NCBI GenBank assembly: GCA_963703955.1 | Contig: CAVPGK010000010.1 | Location: forward strand, 96,001 to 160,000 | Length of the DNA stretch: 64,000 nt | Source of the DNA: Nitrospirota bacterium | GTDB taxonomy: Bacteria; Nitrospirota; Nitrospiria; Nitrospirales; Nitrospiraceae | Reading direction: 5' to 3' | In this document: positions 22,704 through 34,129 of the stretch, piece by piece | How positions within the stretch are numbered: position 1 is the stretch's first letter | Layout: every line of letters begins with the position of its first letter | Translations under genes and position numbers: made by a program | Notes under the pieces: generated by a model | Databases searched by the model: none | What the model was told of the DNA's origin: nothing | The model's input: the letters and a program-made list of their open reading frames with translations, nothing else

Positions 22704-24149
22704 TCATTGAGGCGAAACCGCGTTGTACTCTGTCAATTCATAAGCCGACTGCGAGATCAACGGAGTTTTGGCAGCCTCCGTCTCCAAGTCCCGTAGAAGC
22801 CGTTGAAACTCCTTGTCGTTCCGGATGAGACGGGACGCGGCCAGGAGCAGGTCGTCGAGTTGATGATCGGTCAGCGCCAGATTCGTGGGAATTTTCATGA
22901 CGCGCGCCTGCTCCTCCGGATCTTCCAACTCCGACAAACTGACATTGATGAAGTAAATGTCGGCATCGGGCGTGAAGACACTCGGACCGGTCTGTGCTCG
23001 CTGGCGGAGTTGTGCCCGCCATAGTTTGACGGCCTGACCCATCAGTTCGAAGGTGTCGTCGGAGTACCGATTGATCGGGATGTCGATCAAGGCGTTCAAC
23101 ACCCGCGTGAGGCTGGGAAGTTCATCCAGTTTGTACTGGTTCACATCCGGATGGGTCTCCGCGCTCACCATCAGGTAGACGAGTTTCCGGATTGTTTTCA
23201 CCCCGAGCACCTGGAACGAGGCTTCGACGTCCTCAACGAGTGCGGCTAGCTCTAACACACTGCGCATGCCGATGTTGTCAGCCAACGCGCCGTCCAACAG
23301 ATGGATGTACGGGCGCTTCTCGGCATCGAGATACGACCGCAGCTCGGTCGCGCGCCTTCGGCCCCACGAGGTCCGGCTCTCCGCGCTAATGTACCGCGGC
23401 GGGTCAAATCCGCACTGCCCGGCGTAGTTCTTCAACGAAAGGGGACTGAGGATCAAGGGGAGTGCGCTCGATGCGGCGGTCGCAACCGACAGCGGCAGTT
23501 TGCTGAGATCGGAACAAATCAGGTCGAACTGTCGCTGGTTGAATTCGAACCGCGAGACGGTTGCCATGTCGGAGGCATGAAGGAAGATGATCGGCCGCTG
23601 ATCACTTGAGACGAGGTCATTGAACGTGTGCCGGTCGAACAGCGCTTCGTCCAGCAATTCGGAAAGGATGTGGGCACGGCCGAAATAGGGGGACAAGAGC
23701 CGTAGCCAATTTTTGGGAGACCGCAAGATCCGCGCGCGAAGTTCGCTCTCCCAATCTTTCCGAAGAAAGCGATATTCGAAGTCATGAAAAATGCGGTCGT
23801 GATAGAGCGCATAATACGCCGCCGTGAAGCTGCCGCCCGATAAGGCATTGATGATATTGATTTCGTCGACCAGTCGCTTCCGATGGCCTTCCCACACGAT
23901 CGGTGTCCGGGCCAGTTCCCGCAACACGCCGTAGGAGAGCGCTGACGCCCGCGCGCCGCCACCGGAGAAAGAGGCCACAATAAAGAAACTGTCCGTGCTG
24001 CCGGCCACGGACGGAGGGAGGTTGGCGTAACGATACCCGTAGGCAGGATTCCACCGAGGAAGCGGAGCGTTCATGGTGGGGCGCACATACTCGCAGCCGA
24101 GCGTCAGGCTCAGCAGAGCGATCAATAGCCATACGCCTGCCTGCTTCAT
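22704..24149 (-). CDS. Patatin-like phospholipase lipoprotein, paralog 1
   Basis: Lipobox TLGC, SFSGGGARAS, ALSGGSF nucleophile elbow and LLDGALADN. Confidence 0.85.
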   Translation of the reverse strand: MKQAGVWLLIALLSLTLGCEYVRPTMNAPLPRWNPAYGYRYANLPPSVAGSTDSFFIVASFSGGGARASALSYGVLRELARTPIVWEGHRKRLVDEINIINALSGGSFTAAYYALYHDRIFHDFEYRFLRKDWESELRARILRSPKNWLRLLSPYFGRAHILSELLDEALFDRHTFNDLVSSDQRPIIFLHASDMATVSRFEFNQRQFDLICSDLSKLPLSVATAASSALPLILSPLSLKNYAGQCGFDPPRYISAESRTSWGRRRATELRSYLDAEKRPYIHLLDGALADNIGMRSVLELAALVEDVEASFQVLGVKTIRKLVYLMVSAETHPDVNQYKLDELPSLTRVLNALIDIPINRYSDDTFELMGQAVKLWRAQLRQRAQTGPSVFTPDADIYFINVSLSELEDPEEQARVMKIPTNLALTDHQLDDLLLAASRLIRNDKEFQRLLRDLETEAAKTPLISQSAYELTEYNAVSPQ

Positions 24150-24723
24150 GAGTTGGGGAAGGTTACAAAGCAGAGAGACGGGTGTCAAGGTACCCAAGAA
24201 CTGGCATGATTGACAGGGTATTCTCTTCACTGTGCACTTCAGATGCAACCTTTTGCTTGCCCGTCATTTTGCTACCTCTCCGCTACCAGAACGGGACAAA
24301 CCAGCACGATCAGGGGGGACCATGATGGATCCCTGTCGGGCCGCAAGACACCACAGATCTAAGGACGCGCGATCGATCGCTATGGCTACCTTTGACTCTT
24401 ATCTTTTGGATGGTCGAGTTCGAAGTGTCCGGCAATGCGTCACGATTCGAGGGGGAAGGGCCGGCTATTGTTCCCCGCAACCCAGACGGTACATGAGCTG
24501 GGATGACGCCATCTCTCGTCGCCTCTCACGGTGTCGGGGAGGTCGAAGCCTGTTATAGAACCCTATGAATCAAAAAGCCTGGGTCCGTAGAAGAGTCCAG
24601 CTCCTGCGCCTCGTTGCTCAAAATGTGAAGACTCACTTCGTGATGGGAAACTCGACAAGGACCGTGTCTTCATGCCGGATGGCGATGAGTTTCATCAATG
24701 GTGAGTCGGCGCATCTTCATTTC

Positions 24724-25695: not shown

Positions 25696-26316
25696 ATGAC
25701 GCACTCGGCTCAGATAACCATGTTGGTCGGGTTGGTGCTGACCGCCGGTGTGCTGACCGGCTGCGGGGGAGCCTCAGTCTATGCACGGGCCGCCAAGGCT
25801 CAAGCCAGCGAGTTGAATGTCTTGGCCCAAGCGCGCGACGACAGATTGAAGATGCACCTGCGCGAGGCGATCCTCGCCGACCAGGCCTTATCCGCTCTCA
25901 CCATTGCTCCTTACGTGTTCATGGAGCGCGGATTCGTCGTCGGACACGTCGGCAGCGCAGAGCAGGCTGAAGCCGTGCTTCGCGCCGCTCGAGGTGTGTC
26001 AGGCCTCCGCTCAGTAGACGGGTACCTTCCGGTCAAGCATTCCTCTCCGCAAACCAGTGTTGTGTCGAATACCGCCTCCGACGCGACGATCACGGCCGAA
26101 ACTAAGTCGGCCCTCGGGCTTGCTGGAGTTGTTGTGAGGCGGGTCAGCGTAGAGACGTTTGATGGGCAGGTCGTGTTGCTCGGGGTGGTATCCTCCGAAC
26201 AGGAGCGACTCCAAGCCGAACGAGCCGCGGCGGGTGTGAACGGCGTTCATGGCGTCACAAACTGGCTGTTGTTGCCGGAATCCGAATATTCGACGGTGCG
26301 GCCAAAGCTCAGGTAG
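25696..26316 (+). CDS. Dual BON-domain (OsmY/DolP-like) lipoprotein
   Basis: Lipobox LTGC; two BON repeats (SDATITAETKSAL...VSVETFDGQVVLLGVV...GVHGVTNWL). Confidence 0.8.
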   Translation: MTHSAQITMLVGLVLTAGVLTGCGGASVYARAAKAQASELNVLAQARDDRLKMHLREAILADQALSALTIAPYVFMERGFVVGHVGSAEQAEAVLRAARGVSGLRSVDGYLPVKHSSPQTSVVSNTASDATITAETKSALGLAGVVVRRVSVETFDGQVVLLGVVSSEQERLQAERAAAGVNGVHGVTNWLLLPESEYSTVRPKLR

Positions 26317-26326
26317 GTTGGATAGG

Positions 26327-27697
26327 ATGAACATTCTTCGTTCCTCGGTCGTTGCACTCATGTTGGCGGCCTTCACCGGGTGCGAGTATGTCCGGCCTAC
26401 CCTCAATGCTCCACTTGAGCGGTGGGATCAACGGTACGGGTACCGGTACACCAATTTCCCTCAAGCTCCTGACGGCAGCACGGACAGCCTTTTTTTCGTG
26501 GCCTCGTTTTCGGGCGGAGGCATGCGCGCCTCGACCCTTGCCTACGGGGCCTTGCAAGAACTCGCCCGCACGTCGATCATGTGGGAAGGACGCCAAGAGC
26601 GCCTGCTCGATGAACTGAGCATCGTCACGGCGCTGTCCGGCGGCAGTTTCACGGCTGCCTACTATGCGCTGTATGGCGATCGGATCTTCCACGACTTTGA
26701 ATACCGTTTTTTGCGGAAAGATTGGGAACACGAGCTCAAGTCTCGGATGTTCTGGTCGCCGTACAACTGGTTCCGTCTCTTATCCCCATATTTCGGTCGC
26801 ACCCACATCCTGTCGGAACTCCTGGATGAAGCCTTGTTTGACGGCCATACCTACGGCGACCTGCTGAGACGTGGTCACCAACCGATGGTGTATATCCACG
26901 CCTCCGACATGGCCATGCTGTCCCGCTTTGAGTTCAACCAGCGTCAGTTCGACATCATCTGTTCGGACCTCAGTCAACTGCCGATCGCCACGGCGACCGC
27001 CGCCTCCAGCGCCCTTCCCTTGCTCCTCAGCCCAATCTCACTGAAGAACTATGCCGGGCGCTGTGGATACCAGCCGCCGCCGTGGTTACAAGAAGCACAC
27101 AAGACCGCGACGGGGCAACAGCGGGCCAATGAGCTCCGGTCCTACTTCGATTCGAAGAAGCGTCCGTATGTCCATCTGTTGGACGGTGGGTTGGCAGACA
27201 ATGTCGGGATGCGGAGCATGGTGGAGACGGTTGCACTCGTGGGAGATGTTGAAACACTGTTTAAGGTCCTCGGGGTCAAGACGGTCCGAAAGCTGGTCTT
27301 CCTGGTGGTGAGGGCGGAAACTCTCCCGGATATGTCCTCCTACCAGTTCAGTAAGATTCCGTCTCTCTCTCGAGCGTTGGATGCGCTCGTTGACATCCCG
27401 ATCAATCGATACTCCATTGACACACTCCACCTCATGCGTCTGGGTGTGGATGGGTGGAGGACTGAACTCCGACACCGAAAGCAGAACACGGAGAGCGTGT
27501 TTGCGCCTGATGCCGACGTGTATTTCATCAATGCCAGTCTGAGTGAATTGGAGGATGCGGACGAGCGCGAGTATCTCATGAAGATTCCGACGACCCTGCA
27601 GCTCAATGATGAACAGATCGATCGGCTGCTCGCCGCTGCGACTCACCTGATCCGCAATGACCCGGATTTTCAGCGTCTGATGCGTGACCTGCAGTAG
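26327..27697 (+). CDS. Patatin-like phospholipase lipoprotein, paralog 2
   Basis: Lipobox FTGC, SFSGGGMRAS, ALSGGSF and LLDGGLADN; collinear and clearly similar to 22704-24149. Confidence 0.85.
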   Translation: MNILRSSVVALMLAAFTGCEYVRPTLNAPLERWDQRYGYRYTNFPQAPDGSTDSLFFVASFSGGGMRASTLAYGALQELARTSIMWEGRQERLLDELSIVTALSGGSFTAAYYALYGDRIFHDFEYRFLRKDWEHELKSRMFWSPYNWFRLLSPYFGRTHILSELLDEALFDGHTYGDLLRRGHQPMVYIHASDMAMLSRFEFNQRQFDIICSDLSQLPIATATAASSALPLLLSPISLKNYAGRCGYQPPPWLQEAHKTATGQQRANELRSYFDSKKRPYVHLLDGGLADNVGMRSMVETVALVGDVETLFKVLGVKTVRKLVFLVVRAETLPDMSSYQFSKIPSLSRALDALVDIPINRYSIDTLHLMRLGVDGWRTELRHRKQNTESVFAPDADVYFINASLSELEDADEREYLMKIPTTLQLNDEQIDRLLAAATHLIRNDPDFQRLMRDLQ

Positions 27698-27883: not shown

Positions 27884-28177
27884 TTATGATGCTTTTGCCG
27901 GTCTCTTGTTGAATTCCATTTGGACACGCTCCGCCACAAATAATTTGAGTAGCGTCTGATATGGCACGTCATGTTTATTGGCTAGTATCTTCAGTTGTTC
28001 TAGCAGCGACTTTGGGAGTCGCAGGGAAATAGTTTCAGTTGAGGGTTTTAAACGAGGAAATAGCGTCCGTTTCGCTTTCGAATAATCAACATAGTCCGCC
28101 GAATCGTGTGTGGACCAGAAGTCGGACTCCTGCTTTTCATTCTTGAATTTCGGCATCTTTTTTAGTTTGCTCATCAT
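27884..28177 (-). CDS. BrnA/CopG-like antitoxin
   Basis: PKFKNEKQESDFWSTHDS...TISLRLPKSLLEQLKILANKHDVPYQTLLK; directly downstream of brnT. Confidence 0.85.
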   Translation of the reverse strand: MMSKLKKMPKFKNEKQESDFWSTHDSADYVDYSKAKRTLFPRLKPSTETISLRLPKSLLEQLKILANKHDVPYQTLLKLFVAERVQMEFNKRPAKAS

Positions 28178-28457
28178 ACCTGCTCCGTTCCTTCTTGCTC
28201 ATGTCCCTCGCCGAGATAACCCGAATGCGTTGATTCCTCACTGTAAAGACGATGAAAAGGAGGCGGCCCGTGTCAGTCCTTCCTAATACGAAATACCGTC
28301 CCTCTGCGACCGAATGCCGAATATCCTCAGTCACAACCAGAGGTTCATTGAAAAATACCTGCTCACATTCTGGAAGCGTGACGTGATGCTTCTTCCAGTT
28401 CTTTGTCTGGTTTCCTTCGTCCCAATCAAATCCCTCAAGCCTTGCGAGGTCGTTCAT
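28137..28457 (-). CDS. brnT: BrnT-family ribonuclease toxin
   Basis: GFDWDEGNQTKNWKKHHV...HS..EGRYFVLGRT...FTVRNQRIRVISARDM. Confidence 0.9.
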   Translation of the reverse strand: MNDLARLEGFDWDEGNQTKNWKKHHVTLPECEQVFFNEPLVVTEDIRHSVAEGRYFVLGRTDTGRLLFIVFTVRNQRIRVISARDMSKKERSRYDEQTKKDAEIQE

Positions 28458-28506: not shown

Positions 28507-28788
28507 CAAATCATCCGTGAAGTGGCGGAGTACCCCCCAAGCATTCGAAGGTGGTCCGCTTCTCCGCCATCCCTGGAATCGACTCCCATTAAGTGGCCTT
28601 TCATTTCGTTCGAGCCTGCAAATACTAGTATTTCTTCTCTTCAACGTGTTGACACGCTCCCGGGTAAAAAGTAGCCTTGGTCACGTTAACCACCCACTCA
28701 GCGCCATGGCAACGATCTATCCGTCATCCAAAGGTTCGTTCCCTGGTTAGCGCAGCAGTGCGGTTTGATCGGACCGGGAAGAGACCAC

Positions 28789-31294
28789 ATGCCTCCGGAA
28801 AACTTCGATGTGTTTCTGAGTTACCACTGGCGTGATCATGCACCTGTAGAAGCGCTTGCACGACGGTTGCGCGAGCAGGACCTCACGGTCTTTCTCGACC
28901 GATGGTATCTCACGCCGGGGCAATCATGGCCGAAGGCATTGGAGGCGACCCTTGCGCAATGTCGAGCGGTGGCCGTCTGCATCGGGCAGGGCGAAATGGG
29001 ACCGTGGCAGCAGCGGGAGCAATATCTCGCGCTGGAGCGGCAGGTGGCGGCTGAGCGCCGTGGTCAACACTTTCCCGTCATTCCCGTTCTGCTCCCCGGC
29101 GCAGAACCGCCGCTGGGGTTTCTCAGTCAAAATACCTGGGTCGATTTGCGCTCGCGTGTCGACGATCCGACCCTGCTCAACACGCTCGTCAGAGCCATAC
29201 ACGGCCAGTCGCCTGGCCCGGATGCGCAAGAAACGATCCGTGAGACGCTCACCAGCATCTGCCCCTACCGGGGCCTCCTTTATTTCCGCGAGGAGGACGC
29301 CCCATTCTTTTTTGGACGTGAAGAGGCCATCACTGAGCTGGTTCGCGCCGTTCAGCAGCACAGCCTTGTAGCGGTTGTCGGGGCCTCGGGCAGCGGGAAG
29401 TCCTCGGTCGTGAGGGCAGGACTCGTGCCGACTTTACGGAGAAGTCGTGAGCGAGTCTGGGAGGTGGCCACCTTCGTGCCGACCGATCGTCCGATCTATT
29501 CGCTCGCAGCAGTGCTCATGCCGTTCCTCGAGCCGGACATGAGCGAGACCGCCCGGTTGATAGAAACGAATAACCTGGTTGATGCCCTGGTGGAAAGGAA
29601 AGTCAAGCTGCGCGATGTCGCTGATCGCCTTCTTGCGAAGCAGCCCGGCACAGACCGGCTGCTCCTCATCGTTGATCAGTGGGAAGAGTTGTTCACGCTC
29701 TGTCAGGACGACGCCGCACGCCGGTGCTTCATCGACAGTGTGCTGGATACCACGGCCACGACGAGGGTGAGCGTGGTGCTCACCCTGCGAGGAGACTTTT
29801 TGGGTCGCGCCATTACCGCCTATCGGCCCCTGTCGGATCGTGTGCAAGGCGCCCAAGTGAACTTAGGGCCGATGAATCGGGAGGAATTGCGCCTTGCCAT
29901 CCAAGAGCCGGCACGCCAAGTGGGGCTGACGTTTGAAGCAGGCCTCATCGATCTGATTGTGGAGCAAGCCGGTGACGAACCCGGCCATTTACCCTTGCTT
30001 GAATTCGTGCTTCGGCAGCTCTGGGAGCAACGGCGAGGAGGGGAACTTCACCATGAAGCTTACAAGGCCATGGGGCAACTGCATGGCGCCGTCGCCCAAA
30101 AAGCCGAGGCTCTGTACGAACGATTGAATACGCAACAACAACGAGCCCTGCATAGGATTTTCATGCGTTTGGTTCGCCCTGGCGAGGGCGAGGCGGATAC
30201 GAGACGACGGGCGACCTTCGCGGATCTCGGCGAAGAGGCGCGACCTCTAGTGAAAACACTCGCCGATGCGCGATTGTTGGTGACTTCCCAGCGTCAAGGC
30301 AGTGCGCAGGAAACGATTGAGGTGTCGCACGAGGCGTTGATCCACCATTGGAAGCGACTCGAAACGTGGGTGGACGCGGACCGCCCATTTCTCGCCTGGC
30401 AACAGGGGCTGAACGTGGCGATGAAAGCGTGGGAAGACCAGCAAGGGGCACTCCGATTTCTTGCTCCGCGGGCGTCCGCTGGACGAAGCGTTGGATTGGC
30501 TCCGGAAAAAGTCCGAGGAACTCTCGCCACGCGAACGAGAGTATCTGGCGGCCAGCAAGAAACGCAAGATCAGAGAGCGCGTTGTCGTCGCTATCGCCGC
30601 CAGCCTCGTCCTTGCGCTGGTTGGTTGGCCGATCGCTTGGTTGTGGAAGGAAGGGGTAACGGTCCAATATGCCTGGTCGGTTCTGCGGGTGAGGTTGCCT
30701 CTGGTTCAGGTCCCCGAACCGGAGATGGTGCCAATTCCCGGTAAGCCGTATGCCATGGGGCGCTACGAAGTCACCTTTGAGGAATACGATGCGTATGCAA
30801 GATTAACCGGGCGACGAGTGCCGACCGATCACGACTGGGGTCGAGAGAAGCGTCCCGTGATCAACGTGTCGTGGGAGGATGGAGTGGCATACGCGAAGTG
30901 GCTGTCACAAGCCACGGGTAAACGTTACCGACTGCCGACAGAAACCGAGTGGGAGTATGCGGCGCGAAGCGGAGGGAAAAACGACATCTGGCCTGGAACC
31001 TCAGACGAGAGTCAATTAAAGGACTACGCGGTGTACAACACAGATCGCACAGAGCCTGTCGGCGGGAGAAAACCCAACGCTCTCGAGCTGTATGACATGA
31101 GCGGGAATGTGTGGGAGTGGGTGCAAGATTGCTACGACAAAGCGTATGAGGACAACTGCCGCCTGCGGGTGATCCGCGGTGGGTCCTGGCTCGGCACTCC
31201 GGAGGACTTGCGTGCCTCGAACCGGAATGGGGCCGACGCTGGCGACCGGGTCGGCGCCATCGGCTTTCGTCTGGCCCAAGACCGTCCGCAATAA
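28789..31294 (+). CDS. DGR target protein: TIR - STAND NTPase (nSTAND1-like) - transmembrane segment - FGE-sulfatase/CLec-fold domain (one frameshift near 30450)
   Basis: TIR: FDVFLSYH, VFLDRW, GPWQQRE, PVIPVLLPG. STAND: CPYRGLLYFREED..FFGRE, GASGSGKSS, LIVDQWEELF, LPLLEFVL, EVSHEALI. Hydrophobic [74 protein letters not shown]...IGFRLA. Confidence 0.9.
31169..31279 (+). repeat. DGR variable repeat VR1 (3' end of the target gene)
   Basis: 111 bp gapless alignment to TR. Manual count gives 19 mismatches opposite TR adenines and 8 non-A mismatches, all synonymous. Confidence 0.92.
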
Positions 31295-31375
31295 CCCTGT
31301 GCCCTTTGCCTTTTGGACCCTTTGCCTCTTCTCCGATGCCAGGGGTTATGAATCGGTGAAAAATCTCATGGACGA

Positions 31376-31735
31376 ATGATGGCTTCCACCGTGCCCCAGG
31401 CCGTGCAATCGTGCCATGACCTGCTCCTGTGGCTGATTCCGCAGCTCGACAATTTCCGCGCTCGCGCCGGTTCACGCTGGGTGAACGAATAGAAGCCGGG
31501 GTGCTCGACGTGCTGGAGCTGCTCGTTGAAGCGGCGTATACGCGCACCAAGGAGGCAGCGCTGCGGCGCGCGAATCTGCGGCTGGAGGTGGTGCGCCACC
31601 TGTGGAGACTTGCCCACGAACTGAAGGTCATGGCGACCCGCCAGTACGAGCATGGGGCGAGGTTGATCGACGATCTTGGGCCGGCAGATCGGCGGCTGGC
31701 TCCGCAGCCGGGACACCTCGCAGGCAAGCACATGA
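31376..31735 (+). CDS. avd: DGR accessory variability determinant (four-helix bundle; frameshifts near 31452 and 31680)
   Basis: QSCHDLLLWLIPQLD.FPRSRRFTLGERIE...ANLRLEVVRHLWRLAHEL...QYEHGARLIDDLGRQIGGW; its stop overlaps the RT start (ATGA). Confidence 0.88.
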
Positions 31736-32823
31736 AACGGCTCGGCGGTATCTTGGCCACAGCTGGTGAGTTTCGAGAATCTACTCAGCGCGTATCGCAA
31801 GGCGCGGCGGGGCAAAGGCGGCACGTCTGGCGTGGCGGAGTTCGGCCTGGATCTGGAGCGGGAGCTAATCGCACTGCAACGCGAGCTGCAAGAACGGCGA
31901 CTATCGGCCCGGGGATTACCGCCTGTTCACGATCTATGACCGCAAGCCGCGTGTCATCGCGGCGGCGCCGTTTCGCGACCGGGTCGTGCACCACGCGGTG
32001 ATGAATCTCATCGAGCCGCCGCTGGACCGCACGTTCATTGCAGATTCCTACGCCTGCCGCCGCGGCAAGGGTGTGCATGCTGCGGTGGATCGCTATCAGG
32101 CCTGGGCGCAGACTTATCGGTACGTCTTGAAAATGGACGTGCGGCAGTACTTCCCATCCATCGATCACGAACTGCTGAAGGACAAGCTGCGCCGGCGCAT
32201 CAAAGACCGGCGTGTCTTGGACCTGTTGGATCGCATCATCGACGGCTCTCCCAGATGGCAACGCCGAGCCTATGCTACTTTCCCGGTGACGACCTGTTCA
32301 CGCCGTTGGAACGGCGCGCGGGAATTCCGATCGGCAATCTGACGAGTCAGTTCTTCGCCAATCTGTATCTGGACGACCTCGACCATTACATCAAACAGGT
32401 GCTTGAACGTCAGACCCTACCTGCGCTACGTGGACGATATGGTGGTGCTGGATAACGACAAGGTTCGACTGGCTGACATTCGTGCGGCCGTCCGTGAGCG
32501 GCTCGCGGCCGATCGGCTTCGGCTTCACCCCAACAAGGCGCATGTGACGCGCGTGGCGCGACGGGCTGAATCTGCTCGGCTATGTCGTGTATCCCGATCG
32601 CCGCCGTTTGCGCAACGATAACGGTCACCGGTTCGCGCGCAAACTTCGCGGCATGGCGAAGGCGTATTACGCTGCGAGCGTCTGGACTGGGCCAGAGGTC
32701 AGGGCCTCGATTCAGAGCTGGATCGGCCATGCGAAGCATGCCGACACCGAGGGTCTTCGTCGAGCGATCTTCTCCCAGGCTGGTTTCACAAGGGGAGCGG
32801 GCCAAGCGACGGGCAGCGTGTGA
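31732..32823 (+). CDS. DGR-class reverse transcriptase (about 6-7 single-base frameshifts)
   Basis: [63 protein letters not shown]-type [24 protein letters not shown] and LRLHPNK. Confidence 0.92.
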
Positions 32824-32930
32824 TCCGCGGCGGTTCCTGGAACAACAAACCGGAGAACCTGCGTGCGTCGAACCGGAACAGGAACAACGCCGACAACCGG
32901 AACAACAACATCGGCTTTCGTCTTGCCCAG
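32820..32930 (+). repeat. DGR template repeat (TR)
   Basis: GTGATCCGCGGCGGTTCCTGGAACAACAAACCGGAG...AACAACAACATCGGCTTTCGTCTTGCCCAG contains 11 AAC triplets in the VR frame, aligns to VR1 and VR2, and overlaps the RT stop codon. Confidence 0.93.
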
Positions 32931-33110: not shown

Positions 33111-33215
33111 TCCAATCACGAGTATTCCTGAAAAAGACGAATGCTAGGACGGTGGCTTCCCGGTAGTTGCATTTTTGCTCGTGTTGTCGGATATTGGACA
33201 GCAAGAGGAGACGGC

Positions 33216-33422
33216 ATGACATTTACGATCACAATCACCCGCGACGAGGACGGGATCTACATCGCCGAGTGTCCGGCCATTCCGGGTTGTGTCAGTCAGG
33301 GTAAGACCGAAGCGGAAGCGCAGGCCAACATTCAGGACGCGATCAAGCAATGTCTAGAAGTACGCGCTGAGATGGGAATGCCGCTGACCGTCACCACACG
33401 GCAGGTTGAAGTCATCGTGTAA
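33216..33422 (+). CDS. hicB: HicB-family antitoxin (short form)
   Basis: RDEDGIYIAECPAIPGCVSQGKTEAEAQANIQDAI; GAGGAG RBS. Confidence 0.88.
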   Translation: MTFTITITRDEDGIYIAECPAIPGCVSQGKTEAEAQANIQDAIKQCLEVRAEMGMPLTVTTRQVEVIV

Positions 33423-33649
33423 TGCCGCCTGTTCCCGTTCTCCCTCCCTCCACCGTCATCAAAACCTTTCAGCGACTTGGTTGGCAGGTGGTTCGGCAGA
33501 AGGGGAGTCATGTCATCATGACACGACCCGGCCACATTGCCACTCTTTCGATACCCAATCACCCGGAAGTTGCGCGGGGCACGCTTCGCAGTCTGATCTC
33601 GAAAGCAGGGTTGACGGTGGAGCAATTTCTAGAGGCCTTGAACAAGTAA
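33422..33649 (+). CDS. hicA: HicA-family mRNA interferase toxin
   Basis: LGWQVVRQKGSHVIM...LSIPNHPEVARGTLRSLISKAGLTVEQF. Confidence 0.9.
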   Translation: MPPVPVLPPSTVIKTFQRLGWQVVRQKGSHVIMTRPGHIATLSIPNHPEVARGTLRSLISKAGLTVEQFLEALNK

Positions 33650-33954: not shown

Positions 33955-34129
33955 CAGCGGATGGATCGGCCTGGCTTGAAGCGGGCGGTGGCGATGGCGT
34001 CCAGCGCGTGATCCGGGGCGGCTCCTGGTCAGCGGACCGGAGTCCCTGCGTGCCTCGCTCCGGGACAGGGACAGCGCCGACGACCGGAACGACGGCATCG
34101 GCTTCCGTCTTGCCCAGGACCTCCCCTAA
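33955..34129 (+). pseudogene. Orphan 3' end of a second FGE/CLec DGR target, containing VR2 (34008-34117)
   Basis: [56 protein letters not shown]. Against TR: 15 substitutions and a 1-bp gap at adenines, plus 4 non-A synonymous changes. No upstream gene body. Confidence 0.85.

Follow-up and report, generated by a model that had tools for sequence, protein, structure and literature searches.

Diversity-generating retroelements (DGRs) of clade 5D have been described by Dore et al. (PNAS 2024; PMC10907252) as diversifying STAND-NTPase 'antigen sensors', in an arrangement drawn as 'TIR nSTAND1 Clec' for Nitrosomonas marina (Fig. S11 of the supplementary information), and the tables of that paper list a Nitrospira marina DGR with FGE and TIR_2 matches; statements about this and the other papers compared here refer to the accessible portions of their text and supplements. 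Kaur, Iyer, Burroughs and Aravind (eLife 2021; PMC8195603), who named nSTAND1, interpreted effector-STAND-FGS proteins, often DGR-linked, as sensors of invaders. We report here on a gene of this kind in a 64,000-nt stretch of Nitrospirota DNA (contig CAVPGK010000010.1, positions 96,001 to 160,000), referred to as a whole as the window. The gene encodes, in order, a TIR domain, nSTAND1, a basic stretch, one 22-residue uncharged helix, a juxtamembrane motif and an FGE fold with a C-terminal variable repeat (VR). As in the targets of Dore et al., which often occur in twos, TIR, nSTAND1 and a C-terminal CLec/FGE domain with VR are found beside Avd, a reverse transcriptase (RT) and a template repeat (TR), and as in the systems of Kaur et al. 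a TIR or other effector is combined with a STAND NTPase and FGS. We argue, with a probability of roughly 0.65, that the helix is a conserved membrane span, that TIR and nSTAND1 would reside in the cytoplasm and that the DGR-targeted FGE lectin would act as a periplasmic sensor.

The compartment of such sensors has been treated variously in the literature. Under 'Predicted cellular localization', Dore et al. assign a periplasmic CLec to DGR 3 target 2 and DGR 9 target 1, and call the nSTAND1 targets of DGR 1 and 6 likely cytoplasmic; their drawing of the TIR-nSTAND1-CLec form marks no span, whereas here a span is fixed in all 54 aligned homologues. In the accessible portions of Kaur et al. no membrane span between NTPase and FGS is mentioned. 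Most cyanobacterial variable proteins are described by Vallota-Eastman et al. (2020; PMC7517822) as cytosolic, with some transmembrane or secreted, and Roux et al. (bioRxiv 10.1101/2020.04.01.020958) found a signal peptide or a span at the N terminus in the majority of cellular DGR targets. A 2026 survey of STAND proteins in Nature (PMC13581612) shows FGE-sulfatase and WD40 sensors and places recognition 'inside cells'; in its accessible portions 'transmembrane' occurs only as a figure-legend abbreviation, with no further 'membrane' or 'periplasm'. Our literature searches, which covered few subscription journals, returned no paper in which bacterial STAND NTPases are described as having, as a family, a span that separates the NOD from the sensor. 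Thus TIR-nSTAND1-CLec proteins are already known as DGR targets; what appears to be new, judged from the comparisons below, is that most TIR-nSTAND1 proteins take a predicted membrane-spanning form.

The N-terminal part of the target gene (28789-30438, + strand, frame 1) lies in an open reading frame (ORF) of 659 aa (28765-30744) and likely starts at the ATG at 28789 (MPPENFDVF...), as do its homologues; two of these, P0016 (836 aa) and P0023 (837 aa), are intact and match from residue 1 at 79-82% identity (tblastn). This ORF holds TIR_2 (about 28810-29157, aa 16-131; Pfam 80.4 bits against a cut-off of 28) and nSTAND1 (PF20703; about 29263-30444, aa 167-560; 410.2 bits against a cut-off of 27.1, covering profile positions 1-375 of 379, and 411.8 bits in a genome-wide profile search). 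Walker A (GASGSGKSS) and Walker B (LLLIVDQWEE) motifs are present and, together with the TIR Glu, are invariant across an alignment of 56 full-length sequences (E77, G198, S200, G201, G203, K204, S205, S206, D296, Q297, E299 and E300). The TIR domain aligns with PdTIR (3h16; E 7.6e-5) up to the W-x-x-x-E motif, placing W-Q-Q-R-E opposite W-P-Q-K-E, and the Glu of this motif we take to be the catalytic residue of TIR NADases. Both the profile match and the conserved Glu of NAD-cleaving TIR domains are therefore found, and the domain may have NADase or nucleotide-signal activity.

The remainder of the protein is read in frame 2, from an ORF of 277 aa (30461-31294, + strand) that holds the FGE-sulfatase domain and translates as ...LAASKKRKIRER, then VVVAIAASLVLALVGWPIAWLW, then KEGVTVQ.... 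The basic juxtamembrane stretch KKRKIRER, predicted to be cytoplasmic, is encoded at 30557-30580, the predicted single transmembrane helix (VVVAIAASLVLALVGWPIAWLW) at 30581-30646, and, at 30647-30730, a conserved juxtamembrane module predicted to lie outside (KEGVTVQYAWSVLRVRLPLVQVPEPEMV), to which the model gives a short helix of low confidence. The FGE-sulfatase or C-type-lectin-fold domain follows at 30743-31294 (PF03781, 144 bits; aa 95-272 of the frame; stop codon at 31292-31294), with the variable repeat VR1 (31165-31278) at the 3' end of the gene. Over 30700-30760 the window protein, P0016 and P0023 lack some 25-30 residues at the FGE start that most homologues have, with the consensus ...GGxYQQGD...EQPVRQVTIKPF....

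Hydrophobicity was scored by the Kyte-Doolittle scale averaged over 19 residues (KD19), with 1.6 as the threshold for a span. The helix comprises 22 residues without K, R, D, E, Q, N or H and reaches a KD19 maximum of 2.46; summed crudely over 21 residues on a Hessa-type scale, it comes to about 0 kcal/mol. The 15 residues preceding it contain seven K/R and two D/E, the 15 following it two K/R and one D/E. Elsewhere in the 277-aa frame nothing reaches 1.6, the next best value outside the segment being 0.90, and since the best value in the 659-aa upstream frame is 1.18, that part contains neither a signal peptide nor a second span. Exactly one span, no signal peptide and a positive charge excess on the N-terminal side are the features of bitopic N-in/C-out (type II) proteins, to which the protein is accordingly assigned as a prediction of both insertion and orientation. 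The preliminary description of this locus had proposed the succession of basic stretch, hydrophobic stretch and FGE/CLec domain without an N-terminal signal peptide, and translation, Pfam and KD19 bear it out. Hydrophobicity of this order is nevertheless not rare in this G+C-rich window, where 9 of 262 six-frame stop-to-stop segments of at least 100 aa reach a KD19 of 2.46, and the case for a membrane helix therefore rests on its conservation.

That conservation is extensive. When longer proteins were searched with the 277-aa frame, 58 of the 120 matches listed bore PF20703; most of these are of 836-922 aa with TIR_2, nSTAND1 and FGE-sulfatase, and several are sourced as Nitrospira. All 58 have a hydrophobic segment, which by chain position lies between nSTAND1 and FGE in 57, a Pfam check being made for P0106 only, where the segment follows a shorter nSTAND1. 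When the window protein was aligned with 54 of the homologues (leaving out P0106 and also P0074, P0078 and P0080, each of which has the same helix as P0073), a single uncharged core of 19-25 residues (mean 21.3) occupied the same alignment position in 55/55, with KD19 from 1.72 to 2.72. The sequence of the core varies freely while its position is fixed, and it often ends in G-G-P-x-x-W. In every one of the 55 the 15-residue flank on the N side has more K/R than that on the C side (means 5.0 vs 1.7). A second segment reaching 1.6 occurs in only one of them, within the juxtamembrane motif, which contains Arg and His; the crude scale sum of this segment is +6.6. That motif (WLWKEGVTV.YA.SI..ARLHLV.V.EPEMV) is strongly conserved in the alignment and in the paralogues L022 and L023, and since the module sums to between +4.5 and +11.7 on the crude scale, it is not a second span.

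The helix is not confined to proteins with a lectin-type sensor. P0023 was compared exhaustively with 1.84 billion cluster representatives. Nearly all of the best 150 matches are TIR-nSTAND1 proteins, 479-1691 aa long apart from one of 4448 aa. In 148 of the 150 the C-terminal part of nSTAND1 is present, and a KD19 of at least 1.6 occurs between 25 residues before and 110 residues after the nSTAND1 end in 128 of the 148; 116 of those 128 have no further hydrophobic segment downstream. FGE was found in 30 of the best 150, with the span in 24. The core averages 21.6 residues, and among the 127 representatives with a full 15-residue C-side flank the K/R count is higher on the N side in 112, equal in nine and smaller in six. 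Pfam analysis of 36 span-bearing representatives without FGE placed WD40 propellers after the helix in 21, TPR in eight, pentapeptide repeats in two, TPR plus CHAT in one, Peptidase_M43 in one and no recognised module in three. Since the helix is present whatever the C-terminal module, it is a general feature of the TIR-nSTAND1 clade and no adaptation of the DGR version. By its family-wide occurrence, the predicted helix is certainly real.

Structure models are consistent with an isolated helix. AlphaFold2 was applied to the 277-aa fragment and to full-length P0023; the method is silent on membranes. In the fragment (mean pLDDT 83.6) a long helix at residues 23-64 runs through the basic stretch and the span, followed by a helix at 68-81 (pLDDT 54-56) and by the FGE fold from residue 89, mostly above 90. 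The P0023 model (mean pLDDT 84.2, pTM 0.58) has the long helix at 580-621, between the TIR-NOD body and the FGE fold, a helix at 625-635 and FGE at 646-837. Both models thus show one isolated 42-residue helix between two well-folded modules. Foldseek matched the C-terminal domain to PvdO (5hha, E 1e-16), to TvpA (2y3c; E 2e-14 with the fragment and 6e-16 with the full P0023 model), and also to CarF, formylglycine-generating enzymes and PorK; TvpA, PvdO and PorK are presumably extracytoplasmic neighbours within the FGE fold. The N-terminal part of the P0023 model matched the plant TIR-NLR RPP1 (E 3e-10, 582 columns) and ORC/Cdc6 ATPases, and a sequence search of the PDB with nSTAND1 gave no match at E up to 1. 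The preliminary description had named structure prediction and conservation in homologues as checks on the transmembrane segment, and a re-entrant or two-pass course returning the lectin to the cytoplasm as what would speak against it. The models agree with a single helix through the span, the segment is kept in all aligned sequences, and no second or re-entrant-length segment was found. The proposal that the positive-inside rule puts TIR-STAND inside and the diversified domain outside holds as a prediction, in view of the charge bias in both the close and the wider sets.

A cytoplasmic TIR-STAND part with a periplasmic sensor is thus the best supported topology, as a prediction from these sequences. 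The N-terminal part of about 600 residues would stay inside, since it has no signal peptide and would need cytoplasmic ATP and NAD+; the helix would serve as signal anchor for the export of the roughly 215 residues that follow. Unlike in cytoplasmic NLR-like receptors, where the sensor is contiguous with the NOD, the predicted span would separate the two. A ligand would bind the variable lectin face outside, and the signal may be relayed either along the unbroken helix that includes juxtamembrane stretch and span or by receptor clustering. As in other TIR-STAND immune proteins, nSTAND1 would then oligomerise and bring TIR domains together, with cleavage of NAD+ or signalling by a nucleotide as the outcome. 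Release of autoinhibition by direct contact could not apply, because sensor and NOD would lie in different compartments. As to ligands, we can only guess at envelope-crossing phage parts, predators, competitors, bacteriocins or cues from neighbours.

Paralogues with and without the span occur within the same bacterial family. In a survey of 121 genomes (G000 included), matches to P0023 at E up to 1e-20 occur in 21, or in 15 among the 85 genomes of high quality, and in 13 of 39 genera. One paralogue (L022; G051:C5, 1735-4665, + strand) has the TIR-nSTAND1-span-FGE arrangement and is adjoined by an intact DGR RT; between its ATPase and span lies an E-, R-, A- and Q-rich segment of some 90 residues that may form a rigid single helix or a coiled-coil spacer. 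L023 is DUF4062-nSTAND1-span-FGE, and L024, L029 and L030 are nSTAND1-span-TPR or WD40 proteins. A protein of 475 aa (L032; G051:C14, 1777-3201, - strand) lacks the STAND ATPase and consists of TIR_2 (13-134), a helix (about 201-219) and FGE-sulfatase (247-470), a minimal layout of TIR, span and lectin. The span-bearing paralogues have in common the basic stretch, the span and WLWKEGVTV.YA.SI..ARLHLV. Others have no span, namely the DUF4062-nSTAND1-FGE protein L025 (G080) and the nSTAND1-FGE proteins L026-L028 (G073, G051:C18 and G064:C12), in which a different conserved linker (...LSHQDRLLIGQKLAEFGDTRPGVG...) is found and a cytosolic-type WEWC motif replaces the Cys pair discussed below. The sensor thus seems to occur in two forms side by side in this bacterial family.

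The copy in the window is interrupted. One extra base at 30436-30440 ('gac c agc', + strand) shifts the reading from frame 1 to frame 2. The alignment of P0016 and P0023 runs in frame 1 to ...AWED and resumes in the next frame at SKGHSDFLLRG with zero residues missing, and the homologues read ...YEKSKGNSDFLLRG... uninterrupted over the break; it is this gap-free alignment across frames that identifies a single extra base. A 151-nt contig of sequencing run X1, with one other difference from the window, and a 903-nt contig of run X2, with 71 other differing letters (about 92% alike), are both without one base at 30438, and an uninterrupted frame therefore exists in near-identical DNA elsewhere. 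The share of words sampled from this stretch that any public sequencing run contained was at most 0.13, and contig depth was zero over 30987-31033 and over 31175-31400, the latter holding the VR. The presence elsewhere in the window of long ORFs (1056, 936, 902 and 836 aa) argues against general indel noise, and the window copy is either a recent pseudogene or an assembly error. Read-through of the break by a four-letter codon was considered and set aside, the candidate words all occurring in frame upstream as well.

The associated cassette shows comparable damage. A 114-nt repeat is present in three copies, as VR1 (31165-31278), as the TR (32816-32929, + strand, rich in AAC codons) and at 34003-34116. 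There are 27 mismatches between VR1 and the TR; the 31 TR adenines account for 19 and the 83 other bases for eight, and 30 of the 31 TR adenines fall in codon positions 1 or 2. The pair is a DGR signature with some later drift. As expected of a DGR target, the VR lies at the C-terminal end of a lectin fold, within the FGE-sulfatase domain, which ends at about 31276. A bAvd-like accessory gene follows (31429-31760, + strand; PF22296, E 5.6e-11), and the RT (31754-32820, + strand) is recognised from fragmentary RVT_1 matches in separate ORFs. Aligned with the intact 368-aa RT of a relative (L021; tblastn), it passes through frames 1, 2, 1, 2 and 3, so that Avd is present beside an RT requiring at least four frame changes, which may be either real or assembly errors; diversification is for that reason probably off here. 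A second target is reduced to a remnant (33957-34126, + strand) that encodes the end residues of FGE and carries the third repeat, which has a 1-nt deletion and lies on this FGE stump downstream of a HicB/HicA pair (33141-33649, + strand), without an upstream gene body. With an extra base in the target, a broken RT and a second target that is only a 3' stump, the cassette looks decayed or mis-assembled and the local copy is probably inactive; the damage is confined to the cassette, for long genes elsewhere in the window are intact.

Some features of the surroundings may be recorded here. Type II toxin-antitoxin pairs bracket the cassette, a BrnT/CopG-type antitoxin pair upstream at 27884-28457 (- strand) and the HicB/HicA pair, which may have replaced the gene body of the second target. 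Immediately upstream, a DUF3313 gene and a gene with a BON domain stand between two paralogous genes for patatin-like phospholipases of about 480-510 aa (22704-24248, - strand; 26249-27697, + strand).

Several observations weigh against the topology favoured here or against its link to ongoing diversification. The window copy is frameshifted and its RT broken, and these, together with the 8 of 27 VR/TR mismatches at non-adenines, make recent diversification doubtful. The orthologues in G064 and G074 have open frames (885 and 879 aa) with no DGR RT in their flanks or genomes detectable with a 118-aa RT fragment as query; that in G051 (883 aa) has only a 31-residue RT remnant beside it, intact RTs (82-92% identical) standing beside other targets of that genome, and that in G063 is interrupted by stops, with no DGR RT found by the same query. 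A span is not required for a STAND-FGE protein, because span-less nSTAND1-FGE proteins exist in the same family (L025-L028), as they do among 6 of the 30 FGE-bearing representatives. Cysteines offer an ambiguous guide. C224 and C233 of the 277-aa frame (31130-31160), which correspond to C784 and C794 of P0023, are invariant among the 55 aligned sequences, the loop between them varying in length. Among the FGE domains compared, the pair is present in 7 of 10 with a span vs 0 of 9 without one; this hints at export of a loop stapled by a disulfide, perhaps in the periplasm, but is confounded with relatedness. Cys parity gives no indication of export either way, 98 span-bearing C-terminal parts with any Cys dividing into 52 even and 46 odd (p = 0.61).

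In addition, the WD40, TPR, pentapeptide and CHAT modules that often stand behind the helix in relatives usually serve STAND proteins as sensors in the cytosol. They would be accommodated if the helix, monotopic or re-entrant, anchored the protein at the inner face of the membrane with its C-terminal domain in the cytoplasm and sensing intracellular, in keeping with the published treatment of FGS lectin sensors as intracellular (PMC8195603). The Gly-Gly-Pro within the hydrophobic core of most close homologues could be taken in the same sense, although it lies near the C-terminal end of the core and not at its middle. Known helical hairpins are of about 30 residues or more, for which cores of 19-28 residues (mean 21-22) are too short; these cores are also uniformly apolar, not amphipathic, and the charge bias across them is that of a true span. 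We consider such an anchor quite unlikely. It is less likely again that the stretch is in no membrane at all and forms a buried or oligomer-interface helix of a soluble protein, a view which the equal hydrophobicity of 9 of the 262 six-frame segments might encourage and to which we give the least credence. The fixed position, apolar composition and free sequence of the stretch over 55 close and 127 distant relatives, its basic N-flank, the Trp at its C-end and its modelling as a single long helix between two folded modules are the marks of a membrane anchor and not of a core helix.

Two further alternatives retain the membrane helix and differ as to its purpose. Membrane-disrupting helices are common as effectors in bacterial immune systems, and the helix might chiefly act in this way, bundling upon STAND oligomerisation into a pore or membrane disturbance, with or without outer sensing; its retention where only a short C-terminal part of 75-90 residues follows (P0199, P0201 and P0220) would fit. 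However, a TIR effector with conserved motifs is already present, the helix always lies between NOD and sensor and never at an end, and a conserved outer juxtamembrane module and a large folded domain come after it, so that this role appears very improbable. The same topology could also serve a purpose other than defence, in a signalling or self/kin-recognition receptor of a microcolony-forming nitrifier, which would report cues from the envelope or from neighbours and whose TIR would make a signalling nucleotide instead of killing the cell. Regulatory tuning by DGR targets has been argued for by Vallota-Eastman et al. (PMC7517822), and in the reading of Roux et al. (bioRxiv 10.1101/2020.04.01.020958) most cellular DGR targets are anchored to the membrane and bind substrates outside the cell. 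The locus itself is flanked by toxin-antitoxin and patatin-like genes, with no recognised defence system among 11 neighbours in a Pfam scan, no PADLOC scan having been made. On the other hand, TIR and STAND with intact catalytic-type motifs are the signature of abortive-infection sensors in the papers cited, and the patchy presence (21/121 genomes of the family) and frequent decay fit an accessory conflict gene; a role outside defence seems to us unlikely.

Comparison with receptors of known topology places the predicted receptor, with its lectin in the periplasm, in perspective. TvpA of Treponema denticola (2y3c) has, like the C-terminal domain studied here, an FGE-type C-type-lectin fold with C-terminal variable residues, and lies outside the cytoplasm as an outer-membrane lipoprotein (Dore et al., PMC10907252). 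TvpA has no cytoplasmic signalling part, whereas the lectin in the window would be tethered by the span to a TIR domain and an ATPase. The preliminary description had suggested the topology of Toll-like receptors (TLRs), and so far as an outside ligand-binding domain, one membrane helix and an inside TIR are concerned the likeness to animal TLRs stands as a prediction; what does not carry over is the order of the chain, which is reversed, and the direct approach of TIR to membrane, a STAND ATPase being interposed. TLRs are type I proteins, with a signal peptide, an N-terminal leucine-rich-repeat ectodomain and a C-terminal TIR that recruits adaptors. The window protein has instead an N-terminal TIR that keeps the Glu of NAD-cleaving types, no signal peptide and an FGE lectin in place of leucine-rich repeats, and the resemblance of layout would be one of analogy, not homology. 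With the plant TIR-NLR RPP1 (7dfv, 7crc) and bacterial Avs and bNACHT proteins it would share the expected logic of sensor-triggered oligomerisation activating TIR; their sensors, however, share the compartment of the NOD and can autoinhibit by contact, as a sensor across a membrane cannot. Receptor kinases of the PknB-PASTA type combine a cytoplasmic head, one span and an exported binding domain. A similar succession of cytoplasmic catalytic head, internal hydrophobic segment and binding domain occurs in kinase-span-FGE proteins (P0084 and P0114 among the matches listed), with phosphorylation as the output where the window protein would use its STAND/TIR module.

For this particular genome the matter is modest, because the cassette looks decayed. 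A broader proposition, which we advance tentatively and at somewhat less than even odds, is that TIR-nSTAND1 proteins form a large class of NLR-like receptors which span the membrane and survey the periplasm in place of the cytoplasm. In the FGE branch the outer binding face would be rewritten by a retroelement, as an antibody-like, hypermutable surface wired through the helix to an ATP-gated, NAD+-destroying switch, and the signal would have to cross the membrane by clustering or by motion of the helix, a new mode of STAND activation. STAND/NLR-type immune sensors are presented as cytoplasmic in the papers cited, in so far as their accessible portions go. Should the helix prove to be a true span, the envelope space would be sensed by the majority of one large STAND clade, and their activation would proceed without direct contacts between sensor and NOD. 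The DGR-diversified member would then come closer than other bacterial proteins to a hypervariable surface antigen receptor, and the family as a whole would be a bacterial counterpart of Toll-like and receptor-kinase surveillance.

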